64,000 bases of DNA from Acidobacteriota bacterium. GTDB lineage: Bacteria; Acidobacteriota; UBA6911; RPQK01; JAJDTT01. Shown here in pieces: positions 24,286 to 58,967 of the stretch. The stretch's first letter is position 1; the number at the start of each line of letters is the position of its first letter. The position numbers were made by a program, and so were the translations under genes. The notes below the pieces were generated by a model, which was given only the letters and a program-made list of their open reading frames with translations, was not told where the DNA came from and did not search any database. The stretch spans positions 4,352,001-4,416,000 of the forward strand of contig CBDCJH010000002.1 in assembly GCA_965217775.1 (NCBI GenBank), read 5' to 3'.

Positions 24286-24446
24286 GGAGCGCCGACTTTC
24301 CAGCCGCCCAGGAGCGGCGGCTTTCTTGCCGCCGACTGGGACCGGCGACTTTCTTGTCGCCGGACTCCGGTGGAACAAAGGGGCGAGGAGGAAACGGGGC
24401 AACGCAAGAGCGGGCGACAAGGAAGTCGTCCCTCCTGTTCCCCCTG
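24286..24446. repeat. REP-like cluster containing an unoccupied group II intron target
   Basis: 24323-24362 is identical (40 bp) to the 3' exon of both introns. Confidence 0.85.
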
Positions 24447-49516: not shown

Positions 49517-50145
49517 CAGCAGGGGTTTCGGAAGTCCACCTCTTCAACGTGGCGCGCAGCGAACAGGAAACAGCCGAGCTGTGGGACGCCATCACGGAAG
49601 AGCAGCTCGCTGATTGGGAGGCCGAGTGGAGGCCTGCGTTGTTCGACTCGATACGGCGCCTCAAGATCGCGGGGATTGAGCGTCGACAGTGGCCGCAGAG
49701 CCGCCACTGGGATTGGAGCAGAAAGGTTGAGGCGCAAGGGGGGATGTTGGCCAATCCTGGCTTCAGCATTGTCTGCGACGGCCTGACACAAGGCATGATG
49801 ATCGTTGACACGGCGAAGCACCGATGCCGGATCGATGGACAGAAAGGCAAGCATCTGGTGTACGTAGAGTTCGTCGAGAACGCCCCTTGGAACCGCGCGG
49901 AGTTGTTCACTCCTCCGCGATACCGAGGCGTCGGTAGCATTCTGATCAGGGCTGCCGTCGCGCTGAGCGAAGAGTTGGAGTTTCACGGACGAATCGGTCT
50001 CCACTCGCTGCCCCAGGCGAATAGATTCTATGCTGATACCTGCGGCATGACGGATCTTGGGACTGATCGCGACCGTCAGGGTCTGCGCTACTTCGAGATG
50101 ACGCCCGAACAGGCGCAGGCCTTCGTCAAGAAAGGGAGGAGGTAG
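49513..50145 (+). CDS. GNAT acetyltransferase
   Basis: Motif A RYRGVGSILI; LHSLPQANRFY...GM; ATGA overlap with RHH gene. Confidence 0.85.
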   Translation: MTAGVSEVHLFNVARSEQETAELWDAITEEQLADWEAEWRPALFDSIRRLKIAGIERRQWPQSRHWDWSRKVEAQGGMLANPGFSIVCDGLTQGMMIVDTAKHRCRIDGQKGKHLVYVEFVENAPWNRAELFTPPRYRGVGSILIRAAVALSEELEFHGRIGLHSLPQANRFYADTCGMTDLGTDRDRQGLRYFEMTPEQAQAFVKKGRR

Positions 50146-51809: not shown

Positions 51810-53282
51810 TCAGGCAATCAGCTCGTGCACGACGTTTCCGTAGACGTCTGTCAAACGAAAATCCCGGCTGTTGTGGCGGAAGGTGAGCCGTTCATGATCC
51901 AGGCCCAGCAGGTGAAGAATCGTGGCGTGGAGATCGTGATGCGAGACGCGGTCCTTGATGGCGTGCATGCCAAGATCGTCGGTGGCGCCGTGGGTGATCC
52001 CCGGCTTGACGCCGCCGCCCGCCATCCACATGGAGAAGCCGTAGTGGTGATGGCCGCGGCCGAGGGATTCCTCCGTACGAGCCTCCTCCATCGGAGTGCG
52101 GCCGAACTCGGTGGCCCAAACGACGAGCGTCTCGTCCAGCAGCCCGCGTGACTTCAGGTCCATGATGAGGGCCGTGACGCCTTGATCGGTGCGCGCCGCG
52201 TTTGTGCGGTGGTTGTCGATGAGCCCGCCGCGATTTCCGTGCGCGTCCCATCGCCGCCCGTGGGCGCCGTCGAGAATCTCCACGAAACGGACCCCGCTCT
52301 CCACCAGCCGTCTCGCCGTCAGGCACTTCCTCCCGAATTCGGTGTCGCCGTAGAGCGCCTTCACCGACTTCGGTTCGTTTCGGATATCGAAGAGTTGCGG
52401 CGCTTCCATCTGCATGCGAAACGCCGTCTCGAATGCGGCGATACGCGCGTCGAGCTCGGGCTGAGTGGCGTGCATGCCGCGGTGGAGGCGATTCAACTTC
52501 CGCACCAGATCCAACTGCTTGCTCTGCTGGCCTCGGGTGAGAAATTTCGGCGCCGTGATGTGCGGCACGGGCGGTGTCCCGGCCTTGACGTCCGCCAACG
52601 TGGCCTGGTGGATTCCCGGGAGGAATCCGGCATCGTAAAGCGCACGCCCGCCGGACGGAAGGCCGTCCTTCATCACCACGAATCCCGGCATGTTCCGATT
52701 CTCTGTCCCCAGCCCGTAGGTTACCCAGGAGCCAAGACTAGGGTGGCCCTGTATGGAATAACCCGTGTGCATGAGGATCTGGCCGGTGGAGTGAATCGCC
52801 GAATCGGTGTGCATCGAGTTGATGAACGCGATTTCGTCGACCACTTTCGTCAGGTTCGGGAAGATCTCGCTGACCCAGGCGCCGCTCTGGCCGTAGCGCT
52901 TGAAGGAGAACACCGGCGGAACGATACGCGTGTTGGTGTAGTCCTTCTCCGGGTTCAGGCCTTCCAGGTCTTCCTTGGAGAAGATCTCTCGCGCCAATTT
53001 TCCGGCGTATTTGTTCAGAAGCGGCTTGTGGTCGAAGGTCTCAAGCTGGCTTGCGCCGCCGACCATGAACAGCAAGATGACGTTCTTCGCCTTGGGAGCG
53101 AAGTGTGGCTGTCTGGGTGCGAGTGGCTCGCTGAGGTCGGCCGCGGGTACGGCCGGCGCACCGATTGCCGTCTCGTCCGTGAGCAGGCTGGCCAGAGCGA
53201 TGCCGCCCAGGCCGAGTTCCTTGAGGAACCCACGGCGATCCCAACCGACCGGTGGAGTTCCGTAGTTTGCGTCAGTCAACAT
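51810..53282 (-). CDS. DUF1501 protein (paralog)
   Basis: DRRGFL Tat signal, GGASQLETFDHKP, ATEFGRTP, GATDD. Confidence 0.92.
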   Translation of the reverse strand: MLTDANYGTPPVGWDRRGFLKELGLGGIALASLLTDETAIGAPAVPAADLSEPLAPRQPHFAPKAKNVILLFMVGGASQLETFDHKPLLNKYAGKLAREIFSKEDLEGLNPEKDYTNTRIVPPVFSFKRYGQSGAWVSEIFPNLTKVVDEIAFINSMHTDSAIHSTGQILMHTGYSIQGHPSLGSWVTYGLGTENRNMPGFVVMKDGLPSGGRALYDAGFLPGIHQATLADVKAGTPPVPHITAPKFLTRGQQSKQLDLVRKLNRLHRGMHATQPELDARIAAFETAFRMQMEAPQLFDIRNEPKSVKALYGDTEFGRKCLTARRLVESGVRFVEILDGAHGRRWDAHGNRGGLIDNHRTNAARTDQGVTALIMDLKSRGLLDETLVVWATEFGRTPMEEARTEESLGRGHHHYGFSMWMAGGGVKPGITHGATDDLGMHAIKDRVSHHDLHATILHLLGLDHERLTFRHNSRDFRLTDVYGNVVHELIA

Positions 53283-53326: not shown

Positions 53327-53416
53327 GGAGAGGGGAGGTGGCTGTCCCACTCTCAGTCCCCTTCTCACACGGAAGACGGCGACAAGAAAGTCGCCGGTCC
53401 CAGTCGGCGGCAAGAA

Positions 53417-54059
53417 GTCGCGGTAGGGACGCCGGTTGCCCAGCGCCCCCCGCGCAGATCCGTGCGTTCCCGTTAAGGCACACGGCTCCTACCTCAGGTA
53501 GTGACGGCCGGCCGCGACGCCCACCGTATCCGACCCCCGCCTGTGTCACGCCAACCCGGCTCTGAGTCCGGTCCGTACTTTGGTGAGCCGAAATTCCCTT
53601 TGGTTCCACCCCTTCGCTCCACGGACTCCGCAGAGAGTTCCCCCTCCTTGTTCGCCCGCTTCATCACTACTATGGATGAATCCGATTGCTTCCTCTCTCC
53701 CCTCGTGGGGTACGGGTTCCTCCTTTCCCACAAGGCCCCGGCTCTCGCCGGGGTGAGAGCAAGCCCTCCCAGGTCCCGACACCAGATGTACGTACGTGCA
53801 TGGGTTCTTTGACACCGCAGAGCCCGGCTGCCCCTCACCCTGGCGGTCCAGCCGGTGTTGCCTTCGACCGCGACTACAGCCTCGGCACTTCCGATCAGGG
53901 AGCTTTCGATGCTCAATAGCCTGCCCATACGCACCGCTACCGACGCTTCGCCGACACCCTCACGGGTGCCCACGCTCGGCTCGCGGAGAAACGTGGATGG
54001 TTAGTCCTTCGTTTCAGCGGACTTTCACCGCCTATCTTGTGCCAGTTAGCCTGGCGCAC
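53417..54059 (-). ncRNA. ORF-less group II intron, copy 1 (643 bp)
   Basis: 5' GTGCG; domain V GAGCCGTGTGCCTTAACGGGAACGCACGGATC; domain VI ending CCCTACCGCGAC; no RT ORF. Confidence 0.92.
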
Positions 54060-54191
54060 AGTCGCCCCTCCTGGCAAGAAAGTCGGCGCTCCCGTGCGAT
54101 GCCGCGCAGGGTCGTGAGGTTGTGGCAATGGTGTACAAGGCGCGGAGAGAGGGGGCGAGTGTCCCCTTCTCCAGATAAGTCTCAATGTGAA

Positions 54192-54479
54192 TCAGATCAG
54201 GTCGTCGACGTCGACGCTGAGCGCCTCGGCGAGCGCGGCCAAGGTTCGAGCCGAGCCGGTGCGGACGCCCCTCTCGATTTGCGACAGATAGAGTGGATTG
54301 ATCCCAGCGGCACCGGCGAGCTGCTTCTGGGTCATGCCGCGATGGTCCCGGTATACCCTGACGGCGTTCTCTCCCGCCAGAAGGCGATCCGCTAACTTGA
54401 TTGGAAAAGACTTTCCCCCCACGGACTTGGCGTGATCGTAAAGCTCTTCGTCGGTTAGGCCTGCGGTGGCATCCAACAT
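54192..54479 (-). CDS. XRE HTH antitoxin-like protein, probably 5'-truncated
   Basis: GENAVRVYRDHRGMTQKQLA...YLSQIERG; junction motifs at 54157 and 54508. Confidence 0.75.
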   Translation of the reverse strand: MLDATAGLTDEELYDHAKSVGGKSFPIKLADRLLAGENAVRVYRDHRGMTQKQLAGAAGINPLYLSQIERGVRTGSARTLAALAEALSVDVDDLI

Positions 54480-54622
54480 CGTTAAGCGAGTGTACCCCTG
54501 AAAGATAGTGACTGTCCCCTTCTCGCCCTTCTCGCGCGCGCGTGTCCCCTACTCGCACGCTTCTCACTTCTCACGCGGAAGACGGCGACAAGAAAGTCGC
54601 CGGTCCCAGTCGGCGGCAAGAA

Positions 54623-55265
54623 GTCGCGGTAGGGACGCCGGTTGCCCAGCGCCCCCCGCGCAGATCCGTGCGTTCCCGTTAAGGCACACGGCTCCTACCT
54701 CAGGTAGTGACGGCCGGCCGCGACGCCCGCCGTATCCGACCCCCGCCTGTGTCACGCCAACCCGGCTCTGAGTCCGGTCCGTACTTTGGTGAGCCGAAAT
54801 TCCCTTTGGTTCCACCCCTTCGCTCCACGGACTCCGCAGAGAGTTCCCCCTCCTTGTTCGCCCGCTTCATCACTACTATGGATGAATCCGATTGCTTCCT
54901 CTCTCCCCTCGTGGGGTACGGGTTCCTCCTTTCCCACAAGGCCCCGGCTCTCGCCGGGGTGAGAGCAAGCCCTCCCAGGTCCCGACACCAGATGTACGTA
55001 CGTGCATGGGTTCTTTGACACCGCAGAGCCCGGCTGCCCCTCACCCTGGCGGTCCAGCCGGTGTTGCCTTCGACCGCGACTACAGCCTCGGCACTTCCGA
55101 TCAGGGAGCTTTCGATGCTCAATAGCCTGCCCATACGCACCGCTGCCGACGCTTCGCCGACACCCTCACGGGTGCCCACGCACGGCTCGCGGAGAAACGT
55201 GGATGGTTAGTCCTTCGTTTCAGCGGACTTTCACCGCCTATCTTGTGCCAGTTAGCCTGGCGCAC
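54623..55265 (-). ncRNA. ORF-less group II intron, copy 2 (643 bp)
   Basis: Near-identical to copy 1 (about three substitutions by eye). Confidence 0.92.
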
Positions 55266-55294
55266 AGTCGCCGCTCCCAGCGGGCGGCACCTGA

Positions 55295-56776
55295 TCAGGC
55301 GATGATGTCGTGGACGACGTTGCCGTAGACGTCGGTCAGGCGGAAGTCGCGGCTGTTGTGGCGGTAGGTGAGCCGTTCGTGATCCAGGCCCAGGAGGTGG
55401 AGGATGGTGGCGTGGAGATCGTGATGCGAGACGCGGTTCTTGATGGCGTGCATGCCGAGTTCGTCGGTGGCGCCATAGGTGATCCCCCGCTTGACGCCGC
55501 CGCCCGCCATCCACATGGTGAAGCCGTAATGGTGATGGCTGCGGCCAAGGGTTGTTTTGGTCAGTGACCTGTCCGCCTCCTCAAACGGCGTGCGGCCGAA
55601 CTCGGTGGCCCAGACGACGAGAGTCTCGTCCAGCAGGCCGCGTGACTTCAGGTCGATGATGAGCGCGGTGATGCCCTGATCGGTGCGCGCCGCGTTGGTG
55701 CGGTGGTTCTTGATGAGCCCGCCGCGGTTGCCGTGGGCGTCCCATTGCCGCCCGTGGGCGCCGTCGAGAATCTCCACGAAACGGACTCCGCTCTCCACCA
55801 TCCGTCTCGCCATCAGGCACTTCCTTCCGAAGTCGGTGTCGCCGTAGAGCGCCTTCACCGAGTCCGACTCGTTCCGGAAATCGAAGAGCCCCGGCGCTTC
55901 CATCTGCATGCGAAACGCCGTTTCGAAGGCAGCGATGCGGGCGTCGAGCTCGGGCTGCGTTGGATGTATCCCGCGGTGGAGGCGATTCAACTTCCGCAAC
56001 AGATTCAACTGCTGGCGATGCTGCCCCGGGTTCAGAAACGACGGCGCCTTGATGTGCGGCACCGGCGGATTTCCGGGCGTGACGTCCGCCAGCGTGGCCT
56101 GGTGGTAACCGGGGAGGAATCCGGAATCGTAAAGCGCGCGCCCACCGTCCGACCGTCCGTCCGTCATCACCACGAATCCCGGCATGTTCCGGTTTTCCGT
56201 CCCCAGCCCGTAGGTCACCCAGGAACCAAGACTGGGGTGGCCCTGCCTGGAATAGCCCGTGTGCATGAGGATCTGACCGGGGCCGTGAATCGGCACATCG
56301 GCATACATCGATTTGATGAATGTGATGTCGTCGACCACCTTCGTCAGGTGCGGGAAGATCTCGCTGACCCAAGCGCCGCTCTGGCCATAGCGCTCGAAAG
56401 AGAACACCGGCGGCACGATTTTCGAGCTGTAGAACGTCTTTGACGGATTCAGGCCGTCCAGATCCTCTTTAGGGAAGATGTCCTTGGCCTCTTTTCCGCC
56501 GTACTTTTTCAGAAGCGGCTTGTGATCGAACGTCTCAATCTGGCTTGCGCCACCGACCATGAACAGGAAGATGACGTTCCTCGCCTTGGGAGTGAAGTGA
56601 GGCTGCCGGGGCGCAAGTGGATCGCTGAGATCAACCGCCGGCACGGCCCCTGCGCCGCTCGCCTTCGGGTCCGCGACCAGGCTGGCCAGCGCGATGCTGC
56701 CCAGGCCGAGTTCCTTGAGAAACCCACGGCGGTCCGGTCCAACCGGTCCCGCTCCGTAGGCTGCGTCAGTGGACAT
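55295..56776 (-). CDS. DUF1501 protein
   Basis: Same motifs; overlaps upstream PSD1 gene. Confidence 0.92.
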   Translation of the reverse strand: MSTDAAYGAGPVGPDRRGFLKELGLGSIALASLVADPKASGAGAVPAVDLSDPLAPRQPHFTPKARNVIFLFMVGGASQIETFDHKPLLKKYGGKEAKDIFPKEDLDGLNPSKTFYSSKIVPPVFSFERYGQSGAWVSEIFPHLTKVVDDITFIKSMYADVPIHGPGQILMHTGYSRQGHPSLGSWVTYGLGTENRNMPGFVVMTDGRSDGGRALYDSGFLPGYHQATLADVTPGNPPVPHIKAPSFLNPGQHRQQLNLLRKLNRLHRGIHPTQPELDARIAAFETAFRMQMEAPGLFDFRNESDSVKALYGDTDFGRKCLMARRMVESGVRFVEILDGAHGRQWDAHGNRGGLIKNHRTNAARTDQGITALIIDLKSRGLLDETLVVWATEFGRTPFEEADRSLTKTTLGRSHHHYGFTMWMAGGGVKRGITYGATDELGMHAIKNRVSHHDLHATILHLLGLDHERLTYRHNSRDFRLTDVYGNVVHDIIA

Positions 56777-58967
56777 AGATGAACTCGTTCAGGTTCATGA
56801 GCGAATGGCAGTATTGCACCAATGGGCCTGGAGCATCCGAGGACCCGGTCTCCCCGCTTTCCTCCAACGCACCGGCGCGCCGTTGACCGAGAAACGACAG
56901 GCCGATCTCGCGTTCTTCCGCAGTCGGCGGCCGGGAAAGAGCGATCCCGTAGGCCGTCTCGACCTGCCGGCCGGGATCGTCTCCGACCCTTTCCCGCACC
57001 CGTTGTGCGAAGCGCTCAGCCTGCTCCCACACGAATGGCGCATTCAGCATGAAGGCCGTGCCGCTCGGGGTCGTGCTGACGTCACGAAGGCCGATGCTCT
57101 GGGTGTTGTCGGGCGGGTCGAAGATCTTCAGCACCGGATGGAGGTTCAACCGCGGAGCCATGAGGTAGACGGACCGGCGCCAGGTGTCCGGCGTGTCCTG
57201 GAACGGGTTCTTGCGGTTGCCGATGGGAATGCTGGGCCCGTACAGGCCGGGGCGCAGAGCTCCGGAGACGCTCAACATGTGATCGCGGATGATTTCAGAC
57301 TCCATGCGCACGGGCCGGCGGTGCCACAGGTACTCGTTGTAGGCATCCTGCCGGGCCTGAGCCAATTTGGTGCCAGCCGCCTGTTTGTAAGCTGCGCTGT
57401 TCATGATCAGCCGGTGGATCGGTTTCAGTCGCCAGCTTTCCCGGATGAGCTGGGACGCGAGCCAATCCAGCAGATCGGGATGCGTGGGCTCGGTGCCGAG
57501 TTTGCCGAAATCATTCGGGGTGCTGACGATGCCGCGCCCGAAATGATGCTGCCAGAGACGATTGACGATCACCCGGGCCAGCAACCCGCCGGCGCCATGC
57601 TCCACGTCGGTGAGCCAGTTGGCAAGCATCCGAAGCTTCGGCGCTTCAAGCTGCGCCTCGGGGCCAGCGGCGGCCTCGGGACGGGGCCGCCAATCCTCCG
57701 CGCTGCGCCCGTCCCCCATCAAGACGCGCAGGAACCCCGGCTCGACCGGCTTGACGGGGCTCTCCCAACTGCCAGCGGCCAGTAGATGGGGGGTGGTCAC
57801 CGCGAGGGCGACGAACTTGCCCCCTGCATCCGGTTCTTCCTCAGCTTCGTCGAAGAATACGGCCGTCAACTGGTAGTACTCTTCGGCCGTGATCGGGTCG
57901 ATCTTGTGGTCGTGGCACCGCGCACACCCGACCGTCATGGCAAGGAACGCTTGACCGGTCGCCGACACCATGTCGTCGAGGCGGTGAAACTTGCGTTCGT
58001 TGGGATTTTCGGTCGTGCCCAGGTTGGTTCCCATCTGAACGAACATGCCCAGGTCGCGAAGTGCGGCGGGGAAACCCTTCGGAGCCCCGGCAATCTGGCA
58101 GCGGACGAACTCATCGTAAGGAAGGTCGTCATTGAAAGCGCGAATCACGGCGTCGCGGTATCGATACGCGTCCTCTCGAATTGCGTTGTCCCCCTCATGG
58201 GCTCCTTTGCTCTCGCCAAAGCGAGCCACATCCAACCAGTGCCGTCCCCACCGTTCCCCGTAGTGCGGGTTGGCGAGCAGCCGGTCGACGAGTTCGTGAA
58301 AGGGATCCGCAGAGGAATCTCGAACGAACGCCTGGACTTCTTCGGGGGCGGGCGCGAGACCGATCAGGTCGAAGTAGGCGCGGCGAATCAGGGTGGGCCG
58401 ATCGGCCTCCTGCGCCGGGCGAAACTGCATCTCGTGCAGCTTGGCGAGGAGGAAACGATCGATGGGCGAGTCTGTCCACGCGGCCTCGTCCGAACTTGCC
58501 GCCGAGATCTGAGGCGGGTCGACAGCACGCAGGGGGTGGAAGGCCCAGTGCCGGCGTCCTGACTCGAGATCCGTTTTCCCGGGTTCAGCGGCCTGCGCAT
58601 CCCTCGGATACGGCGCGCCGAGGGTCACCCATTGGACGAAATCAGCGATGACCGAGTCAGACAGTTTGCCGCCGGGCGGCATTGCCAAGCTGCGATCGGT
58701 GTGCTTGAGGGCCTCGATCAGAATGGACTGGTCGGGTCGGCCCGGCACGACGGCGGGGCCCCGCGACCCGCCTTGCTCGACACCCTCCCGCGTGTCGAGC
58801 TGCAGTTTCCCAAACAGCATTCCCGCGCGGTCGGCCTCCGCCGAATGACACTGATAGCAGCGCTCCGACAGAACCGGACGGATCTTCTTTTCGAAGAAGT
58901 TGATACGGTTCTGCCTGGGTTCCTCGGGGGCTCCGAGCAGGCTGAGGGCAATTACGATAAGGATCAC
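56766..58967 (-). CDS. PSCyt/DUF1549/DUF1553 protein
   Basis: [39 protein letters not shown]. Confidence 0.92.
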   Translation of the reverse strand: MILIVIALSLLGAPEEPRQNRINFFEKKIRPVLSERCYQCHSAEADRAGMLFGKLQLDTREGVEQGGSRGPAVVPGRPDQSILIEALKHTDRSLAMPPGGKLSDSVIADFVQWVTLGAPYPRDAQAAEPGKTDLESGRRHWAFHPLRAVDPPQISAASSDEAAWTDSPIDRFLLAKLHEMQFRPAQEADRPTLIRRAYFDLIGLAPAPEEVQAFVRDSSADPFHELVDRLLANPHYGERWGRHWLDVARFGESKGAHEGDNAIREDAYRYRDAVIRAFNDDLPYDEFVRCQIAGAPKGFPAALRDLGMFVQMGTNLGTTENPNERKFHRLDDMVSATGQAFLAMTVGCARCHDHKIDPITAEEYYQLTAVFFDEAEEEPDAGGKFVALAVTTPHLLAAGSWESPVKPVEPGFLRVLMGDGRSAEDWRPRPEAAAGPEAQLEAPKLRMLANWLTDVEHGAGGLLARVIVNRLWQHHFGRGIVSTPNDFGKLGTEPTHPDLLDWLASQLIRESWRLKPIHRLIMNSAAYKQAAGTKLAQARQDAYNEYLWHRRPVRMESEIIRDHMLSVSGALRPGLYGPSIPIGNRKNPFQDTPDTWRRSVYLMAPRLNLHPVLKIFDPPDNTQSIGLRDVSTTPSGTAFMLNAPFVWEQAERFAQRVRERVGDDPGRQVETAYGIALSRPPTAEEREIGLSFLGQRRAGALEESGETGSSDAPGPLVQYCHSLMNLNEFIYVH

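Follow-up and report, generated by a model that had tools for sequence, protein, structure and literature searches.

Group II introns that lack an open reading frame (ORF) are described as rare in bacteria, and three target specificities of group II introns, namely homing sites, terminators, and attC sites, are distinguished in the available parts of a review (PMC4424553). Class C (IIC) introns are described there as inserting after terminator motifs or at attC sites (PMC4424553, Zimmerly and Semper 2015), and introns without an endonuclease are reported, in the accessible portions of two papers, to use the replication fork for priming (PMC4424553; PMC8919778). In Thermosynechococcus elongatus, the 17 ORF-less TeI3 introns go back to one ancestral deletion with identical breakpoints that was followed by proliferation, and mobilisation of the ORF-less copies by the reverse transcriptases (RTs) of related introns was demonstrated experimentally, according to the accessible part of that report (PMC2882425). 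Repetitive extragenic palindromes (REPs) are targeted by the insertion sequences ISPpu9, ISPpu10, ISPsy8, ISPa11, and IS1397 (Tobes and Pareja 2006, PMC1525189), and the available text of the same paper associates a group II intron of Pseudomonas putida KT2440 with REPs in 2/9 copies (PMC1525189). The analysis reported here concerns two ORF-less group II introns, OL1 and OL2, in a stretch of 64,000 nucleotides (the window) that corresponds to positions 4,352,001 to 4,416,000 of contig CBDCJH010000002.1 (C2) of the Acidobacteriota bacterium assembly GCA_965217775.1. The explanation preferred, with a probability of about 80%, is that the pair belongs to a family of ORF-less and RT-encoding introns that homes into REPs under RNA guidance. 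Coordinates are window positions unless marked C2. The host genome (G000; 6.43 Mb, 62% G+C) was compared with those of its relatives G002, G004, G005, G006, and G007, and L numbers denote the loci compared.

OL1 (53417..54059, GUGCG...CGAC) and OL2 (54623..55265) are each 643 nt long, have a spacing of 1206 nt, and are identical but for 3 bases; both lie on the minus strand, as do all features given below for the twins and their neighbours. The original prediction had described a near-identical pair of this length and spacing without an RT, and this description was borne out: no RT domain was found in either copy, and the sole long inner frame (53494-53973, 159 aa) had no Pfam match. The group II identity, for which a covariance-model check had been proposed, was supported by RF02005 (group-II-D1D4-6), which covered model positions 1-225 of 225 in both copies with 160.7 bits for OL1 (53803-54025) and 168.6 bits for OL2 (55009-55231), compared with a gathering score of 49. 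Both introns have 5' GUGCG and 3' AC termini. Domain V of OL1, with its AGC triad, was located at 53457..53488 by RF00029 alignment and covariation, and domain VI occupies 53417..53456. The stem of domain VI shows compensatory changes, and an A is bulged out of it 8 nt before the 3' terminus, at 53424 in OL1 and at 54630 in OL2. Among 14 sequences, nine helix pairs of domains V and VI showed compensatory double changes, and the differences fell between lineages. The triad, the bulged A, and the GUGYG/AY ends that characterise a group II ribozyme are therefore all present in OL1. A single-sequence minimum free energy fold, which did not reproduce the canonical domain layout, was set aside, and the Rfam alignment and covariation were used instead. 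On this evidence OL1 and OL2 are best explained as non-autonomous group II introns with a IIB-like architecture that includes the exon-binding sites EBS1, EBS2, and EBS3.

A BLAST search of the host genome with OL1 recovered 10 intact RT-encoding copies of 1917 nt, two further ORF-less copies (OL3 and OL4, 92% and 94% identical to OL1), and two fragments, one of which is an RT-type copy truncated at its 5' end and the other a 68-nt 5' piece. The search for additional copies and an RT-encoding parent, which had been proposed originally, thus yielded a candidate source of RT acting in trans. For the family-wide comparison 45 copies (23 ORF-less, 22 RT-encoding) were collected from the host genome, G002, G004, G005, G006, and G007; two G002 loci were left out owing to a mismatch to the 5'-end anchor, and one of the 45 had no readable EBS1, leaving 44 that were scored. 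At most 14 candidates were scored per genome, and copy numbers are lower bounds. The 44 copies are partly non-independent, since OL3 and OL4 have orthologues in G007.

Removal of OL1 or OL2 rejoins GGCGACT to TTCTTGCCGCC, which reads GGCGGCAAGAA^AGTCGCC on the plus strand, and restores the hairpin GGCGAC-TTTCTT-GCCGCC with a 6-bp stem and a 6-nt loop, as had been claimed. The hairpin belongs to a family, REP1, with the pattern GGCGRC-TTTCTT-GYCGCC, which occurs without mismatch 109 times in the 6.43 Mb. The 18-nt hairpins frequently follow one another in tandem at a period of 28 nt, the repeat unit having the consensus ..GGGAGC GGCGRCTTTCTTGYCGCC... A second palindrome family, REP2 (cGTAGG GGGCRCCC CTTGT GGGYGCCC), is present at about 80 loci and carries the GTAG tag that is typical of classical REPs. 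By crude ORF calls, filtered by G+C content at third codon positions (GC3) and covering 77% of the contig, 28 of 106 REP1 and 21 of 79 REP2 units fall inside ORFs. REP1 is accordingly a REP-like family, that is, a short GC-rich palindrome present in some 100 or more copies, clustered, and extragenic by these gene calls. The intron insertion point lies between the first and second loop bases of such a hairpin, or of a closely similar variant, in nine of the ten long copies, in three of the four ORF-less copies, and in both fragments (judged from one flank each); OL3 occupies the equivalent position of REP2. In OL1 the 3' exon starts at 53406..53416 (54612-54622 in OL2) with the loop remainder UUCUU and the 3' arm GCCGCC. 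The REP as landing site, which copies outside REPs could have contradicted, was recovered across the family: stem pairs across the insertion point numbered 6/6 in 33 of the 44 copies and at least 5/6 in 40 of them, compared with 3% and 26% at 50,000 random positions.

Unoccupied sites that match a relaxed target pattern number 48 in the host genome. One potential empty target, a REP1 doublet at window positions ~24316-24362 (G000:C2:4376316-4376362), lies about 29 kb from the twins and is preceded by an IBS2-like AGGAGC. The genome also holds three matches of 22-39 bits to Y1_Tnp (IS200/RAYT-like), at G000:C2:5635604-5635789, 4665981-4666208, and 2626245-2626505, and no REP1 or REP2 unit was found within 1.5 kb of these three genes. 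The label of a parasite of a parasite, attached to the pair in the original prediction, is unproven, since mobility of the repeats themselves is putative.

In OL1, EBS1 (AGUCGC, 53870..53875; 55076-55081 in OL2) falls in a terminal loop of RF02005, and EBS2 (GCUCCC, 53898..53903; 55104-55109 in OL2) in a non-conserved internal-loop stretch of the same model; we take these loop positions to be the usual places of EBS1 and EBS2 in IIB-type introns. The 5' exon target of OL1 (54060..54072) consists of the intron-binding sites IBS2, AGGAGG (54072..54067), and IBS1, GCGACU (54065..54060), separated by a spacer G, and that of OL2 (55266..55278) of IBS2 GGGAGC (55278..55273), a spacer G, and IBS1 GCGACU (55271..55266). 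IBS1 comprises the last five bases of the 5' stem arm and the first loop base of the split REP, and IBS2 GGGAGC is the conserved left flank of REP1, one spacer base from IBS1. The positions originally assigned to both guides were correct, as was the perfect EBS2-IBS2 match in OL2 (6/6); OL1 has 4/6, and values of 4-6 of 6 were found across copies. The possibility that these pairings would fail in the folded intron, raised at the outset, was countered by the placement of the guides in the loops of the Rfam model and by the family itself. With G-U counted as a pair, EBS1 matched the copy's own 5' exon at 6/6 positions in 41 of 44 copies and at 5/6 in the other 3, and each of seven EBS1 variants paired best with its own exon class. 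These are AGUCGC with GCGRCU, AGUCCC with GGGACU (at GGGGGAC...GTCCCCC hairpins), AAUCGC with GCGAUU, GGUCGC with GCGACC, GGGUGC with GCACCC (at REP2), AACCCC with GGGGUU, and GGAUGC with GCAUCU (at a non-hairpin site in G004). EBS2 covaries with its target as well (CCUACG-CGUAGG at REP2, CAUGCA-UGCAUG in G004).

The EBS3 candidate is the A at 53810 of OL1, in domain I (intron position 250, in GGUGUC[A]AAGAAC; 55016 in OL2). Of 35 copies compared at this alignment column, 34 have a base complementary to the first nucleotide of their 3' exon (A/T, G/C, and U/A), and only the ectopic copy FL8 departs from the rule. The comparison excluded the two unanchored G002 loci, the truncated L049, both copies with an insertion, and all but three of the ten long G000 copies. 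A U precedes EBS1 on its 5' side both in the type with T as first 3'-exon base (OL1) and in the type with C (OL3). The first 3'-exon base is thus predicted to be read by EBS3-IBS3 pairing and not by the delta base beside EBS1.

Ectopic copies were found in the host genome (FL8) and in G005 (G005_L047); both have IBS1 at 6/6 and a good IBS2 and lack the 3' repeat arm, so base pairing appears to suffice to define a site. FL8 (G000:C2:3929720-3931636; L003) is one of three identical RT-encoding copies and occupies a non-REP site. Its removal in silico opened an 834-codon frame across the junction (GC3 0.68), and FL8 may be a recent insertion, in sense orientation, into a protein-coding gene. A sister subfamily is represented in G004 by three RT-encoding copies (L076-L078) with one common set of wholly retargeted guides (EBS1 GGAUGC, EBS2 CAUGCA, EBS3 U). 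All three are located at the non-hairpin site TGCATG-G-GCATCT^A(T/C)AAGG, which is probably another repeated element.

The ten 1917-nt copies are about 87% identical to OL1 over their first ~547 nt and about 79% over their last 95 nt, with 1.27 kb between, and all of them hold an open frame of 522-526 codons; three are identical to one another at different loci. The RT/maturase gene that these full-length relatives carry in domain IV is absent from OL1 and OL2. The intron protein (519 aa) matched RVT_1 at 5e-35. No other Pfam domain was found in it, the maturase (GIIM) domain being undetected by Pfam, and for this reason the protein is considered to lack an endonuclease. Its nearest solved structures are group II intron RTs of IIC type (~1e-46), a similarity that gives no class assignment. 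No Acidobacteria-specific group is mentioned in the available text of a paper on endonuclease-less classes, and a literature search for a published mapping of RF02005 to an intron class found none. In FL1 (L002:1048-2607), and likewise in the other nine long copies, the RT frame runs across domains V and VI to a TGA that overlaps the last four intron bases (..GTGAC); since the frame extends through these catalytic domains, they encode the last ~35 RT residues.

The ORF-less copies would derive from such an RT-encoding, endonuclease-less intron by one internal deletion of ~1.27 kb in domain IV. One deletion junction is common to all 4 ORF-less copies of the host genome, which indicates that the ORF was lost once and that the shortened element spread afterwards. 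In OL1, the domain IV remnant (53513..53706) holds the first ~64 codons of the lost RT gene and ends at the deletion junction 53513|53512; the 159-aa frame includes this remnant of the protein N-terminus, the start codon being gone. The 19 ORF-less copies from G005, G006, and G007 aligned with OL1 end to end, the truncated L049 excepted. In a tree of the ribozymes the ORF-less copies formed one clade apart from the long copies, with sub-clades that track EBS specificity. A 30-nt island in domain IV (53655-53684) is 97% identical to the RT-encoding copies, compared with 67-83% in the surrounding windows, and fits a candidate protein-binding site retained in domain IVa. Identity between OL1 and FL1 was compared over the first ~540 positions, as the global alignment misplaces the 3' 95 nt; it was 93-100% in domain I (intron positions 1-210) and 67-90% in domains II-IV (256-375). 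The high domain I identity between the ORF-less and RT-encoding lineages could reflect strong constraint on domain I or its exchange. The copy OL4 (G000:C2:1903834-1904588) has its domain I interrupted by a 113-nt AT-rich insert with inverted ends of ~17 nt that resembles a miniature inverted-repeat transposable element. The identical insert is present in the orthologous G007 copy L051 (G007:C27:73860-75014), and the nesting is therefore old.

Bursts of ORF-less copies were found outside the host genome: G005 holds a set of five and G006 a set of three, ~100% identical within each set but different in their flanks, which indicates recent spread to multiple sites after the loss of the ORF. In G005, at least 11 ORF-less copies accompany a single RT-encoding one. 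G006 was assembled as one contig with a completeness rating of 97%; at least 7 ORF-less copies were counted there, and the loci compared are L033-L039, L100, and L104. Intron DNA was detected in every one of 8 further genomes of the genus and in none of 6 from the sister genus; two more distant genomes gave weak matches to the intron 3' end only. Proteins more distantly related to the intron RT, at 41-57% identity, occur in Bryobacterales and other Acidobacteriota; both intron ends were located for one of them, and there was no hairpin there. In this tiny sample REP homing looks specific to the genus.

The sense strand of the intron is the leading strand in 15 of 16 host copies, which places the intron in the lagging-strand template. 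Empty REP1 units have that orientation in 56 of 106 cases (binomial p = 5e-4, Fisher p = 0.002). This bias fits an intron of the present kind, because endonuclease-less introns are reported to prime at the replication fork. According to crude GC3-filtered ORFs, a co-oriented ORF ends at most 135 nt upstream in 8 of 14 copies (one ambiguous), 2 of the same 14 have an opposite-strand ORF, and 4 have none nearby, counts that are too rough to carry weight.

Under the preferred explanation, the whole family would home by RNA-DNA pairing into the top of REP-type hairpins, with EBS2 pairing to the repeat's 5' flank GGGAGC, EBS1 to GCGACU, and EBS3 to the next loop base. Insertion would take place between the first and second loop bases, so that splicing would restore the hairpin in RNA, and the spliced exon joint would read ...GGCGACU joined to UUCUUGCCGCC. 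ORF-less copies would be spliced and mobilised in trans by the RT/maturase of full-length copies, and the twin pair may represent two retrohoming events. Priming from the replication fork is inferred from a protein without an endonuclease domain together with copies co-oriented with the fork.

Several observations weigh against this explanation or weaken parts of it. RF00029 aligned over its full length at 53417-53490 of OL1, yet the score of 28.8 bits is under the gathering score of 40, and the G of the domain V triad stands opposite A instead of U. This mismatch is common to all relatives examined, evidently recently copied full-length elements included. The EBS3 column was selected as the best of ~330 columns scanned. 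Some ORF-less copies are dead: GAGCG stands at the start of OL3 and of its orthologue in G007, the 113-nt insertion disrupts domain I of OL4 and of the G007 counterpart, and pairs are broken in L047. The strand assignment depends on a replication origin close to 5.0 Mb and a terminus close to 1.69 Mb of C2, both placed from cumulative GC skew alone, and the bias becomes 14/15 if OL1 and OL2, possibly one event, are counted once. The 3' flanks of the twins are identical at 56 of 57 nt. No cognate RT was found in G006. The most similar RTs in that genome share 31-36% identity and come from other intron families, and some have in-frame stops; a 515-aa RT of another intron family is present. A simple model in which the cognate RT acts in trans is therefore incomplete there. 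The partner RT in G006 may have been lost recently or may be carried by a replicon that escaped binning; alternatively, the protein of a distant intron may be serving. Finally, no exon-exon joint assignable to the host genome was found in the assembled contigs of four public runs, which are mixtures of relatives.

Two candidate signals from these data were rejected. A contig joint 53416->55266 was considered as spliced RNA or an empty site and was discarded, as its 24-nt side is REP sequence, and a 13-17-nt loose end at 53416, considered as evidence of splicing or of an empty site, matches generic REP sequence. Intron contigs from RNA libraries had a word depth above that of flanking genes; with a multi-copy element and possible DNA carry-over, the depth bears no conclusion on expression or splicing.

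The alternative that survives best concerns the twin pair itself. In intron orientation the locus consists of the DUF1501 gene B (55295..56776), whose stop codon lies 29 nt upstream of OL2 in the same orientation, OL2 in its REP, two REP units, a helix-turn-helix (HTH) gene of XRE type (54192..54479, 95 aa), OL1 in a REP array, and the DUF1501 gene A (51810..53282), a paralogue of B that starts 134 nt downstream of OL1. An intact REP1 unit (GGCGACTTTCTTGTCGCC, 53378..53395) neighbours OL1 and has a twin at 54584-54601, and a degenerate REP1 unit (54074-54088) lies beside OL1. The same gene order is found without introns in G002, G004, and G005. The space between the DUF1501 paralogues is occupied in relatives (L054, L055, L052) by an intact toxin/antitoxin pair, made up of an 86-aa ParE-like toxin and an HTH antitoxin of 123 aa. 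The host genome (54192-54623) has lost the toxin and the first ~28 codons of the antitoxin, and its HTH gene is accordingly a truncated form of the latter. The DUF1501 paralogues share stretches of 91-93% identity (e.g. 52081-52380 and 55575-55874), and both are conserved in four relatives; the upstream paralogue follows a PSCyt1/PSCyt2/PSD1 gene (56766-58967).

Under the alternative, the twins would result from one intron copied as DNA together with ~57 nt of the downstream REP array, by segmental duplication or gene conversion, and not from two retrohomings. This is considered less likely than not, though it is a serious possibility, and if it is true the pair is uninformative on current activity. 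The 3' flank that the original prediction had described as shared extends over the 57 nt with one mismatch; its first 41 nt are the REP doublet, and its last 16 nt occur nowhere else in the genome. The locus is also rearranged relative to relatives: the DUF1501 paralogues share stretches of 91% identity, the toxin and the antitoxin N-terminus are deleted, similar intergenic modules recur ahead of each gene, and metagenome contigs show alternative arrangements of the locus. However, the 5' flanks have only GGCGACT in common and part 7 nt from the intron (AGGAGG-G and GGGAGC-G), the distance first proposed, so that a conversion tract would need an endpoint precisely at the edge of the intron. 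Intron-free counterparts of both 3' modules exist, downstream of DUF1501-B in G002 and G004 and after the X module in G006. In addition, the REP doublet is 100% identical over 40 nt at the unrelated empty site C2 4376323-4376362, and much of the shared flank is therefore a pre-existing repeat. The original prediction had named duplication of an inactive copy as the outcome that would defeat it. For this pair, the duplication part of that objection stands at the strength just given; for the lineage it does not, as one deletion junction occurs at unrelated loci and identical copies sit at different REPs of G005 and G006. The conclusions drawn for the family are independent of how the twin pair arose.

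A variant that is considered unlikely, though not negligible, goes further than the preferred explanation. The RT-less lineage would be a specialised RNA-guided parasite of REPs that co-evolves with them, retunes EBS1-3 between REP families (REP1, the GGGGGAC type, the GGCGAT type, and the GTAG-tagged REP2), and proliferates without a cognate RT, as in G006, by means of a distant protein (31-36% identity) or a host factor. If it is true, hairpin structure, beyond sequence, would be part of recognition.

A very improbable alternative is that a unit of REP arm, intron, and REP arm moves as DNA through the agent that spreads the repeats (a Y1 transposase or recombination), the EBS-IBS match being kept by selection for splicing. 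The arms of the split hairpin resemble terminal inverted repeats, the genome has three Y1_Tnp-like genes, and identical ORF-less copies occur in G006, where no cognate RT was found. A preference for the lagging-strand template is also a property of single-strand transposases. Against such a unit, the same intron sequence is found with different arms and loops in G006 (L033, L034, L035), and the arms therefore belong to the site and not to the element. Moreover, the ectopic FL8 and L047 have IBS1 and IBS2 matches without a 3' arm, relatives have intron-free REPs at corresponding intergenic positions, the strand bias of the introns is not shared by empty REP1 units, and no Y1 gene has a REP1 or REP2 within 1.5 kb. 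Equally hard to credit is the view that the ORF-less copies are immobile leftovers, capable of splicing only or inert, whose distribution reflects insertions before ORF loss and vertical inheritance: OL3 and OL4 are indeed old, with G007 orthologues that have identical flanks and identical defects, and several copies are decayed, but copies with one and the same deletion junction occupy different loci from species to species, ~100% identical copies occupy unrelated sites (five in G005, three in G006), and EBS1, EBS2, and EBS3 were retargeted within the ORF-less clade.

REP homing by this family would have several consequences. The copies amount to a natural series of compensatory mutations for all three guides, and the targeting rules are directly testable. 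The element could be reprogrammable, as existing intron-based gene-targeting tools are. The family would illustrate how a retroelement can multiply without target saturation or gene damage, and the genus provides a natural experiment for identifying the agent that mobilises RT-less introns where the partner RT is missing. The mechanism proposed here, RNA-guided retrohoming with trans-mobilised ORF-less derivatives, is a known one, and the target and the covariation pattern were not found reported; a literature search, which left most subscription journals uncovered, found no report of a group II intron family homing into REP loops.

The known system closest to the present one is that of the T. 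elongatus TeI3 introns, which, as far as the available parts of their description go, share with it a single ORF deletion, retained remnants of the ORF ends, diverged EBS/IBS families, and a preference for non-essential repeated DNA. The T. elongatus proteins, according to the same parts, carry DNA-binding (D) and endonuclease (En) domains, and their targets are other introns, an insertion sequence element, and intergenic sites, not REP hairpins. In contrast, the family described here is endonuclease-less, targets the loops of palindromes, and has a specificity that follows the repeat variants across species; it is known from sequence alone.

Introns of class IIC are not known to carry an EBS2, and their ribozymes are roughly 400 nt long. 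The present family resembles the IIC and IIC-attC introns, as these are characterised in the accessible portions of the literature, in being endonuclease-less, in stem-loop-defined sites, and in an orientation bias with respect to replication. It differs from them in a 6-nt EBS2 that covaries with the target, a ribozyme of ~640 nt, the RF02005 match, insertion inside the loop, and a stem arm that serves as IBS1, and OL1, OL2, and their relatives are accordingly not IIC introns. RmInt1 is an endonuclease-less IIB intron (class D) whose homing site lies inside an insertion sequence. The two have in common a protein with RT and maturase parts only, targeting by EBS1, EBS2, and EBS3, an orientation consistent with the fork, and a multi-copy homing site. 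They differ in that the target is a REP here and an insertion sequence for RmInt1.

The insertion sequences that target REPs likewise use them, in the available account, as specific and harmless landing sites, but these are DNA transposons. With the P. putida intron, 2/9 copies were associated with REPs, whereas hairpins hold 33 to 40 of the 44 copies of the present family, always with the insertion at one fixed position. To the homing sites, terminators, and attC sites used by group II introns, the palindrome loop of abundant intergenic repeats would thus add a fourth kind of landing place.

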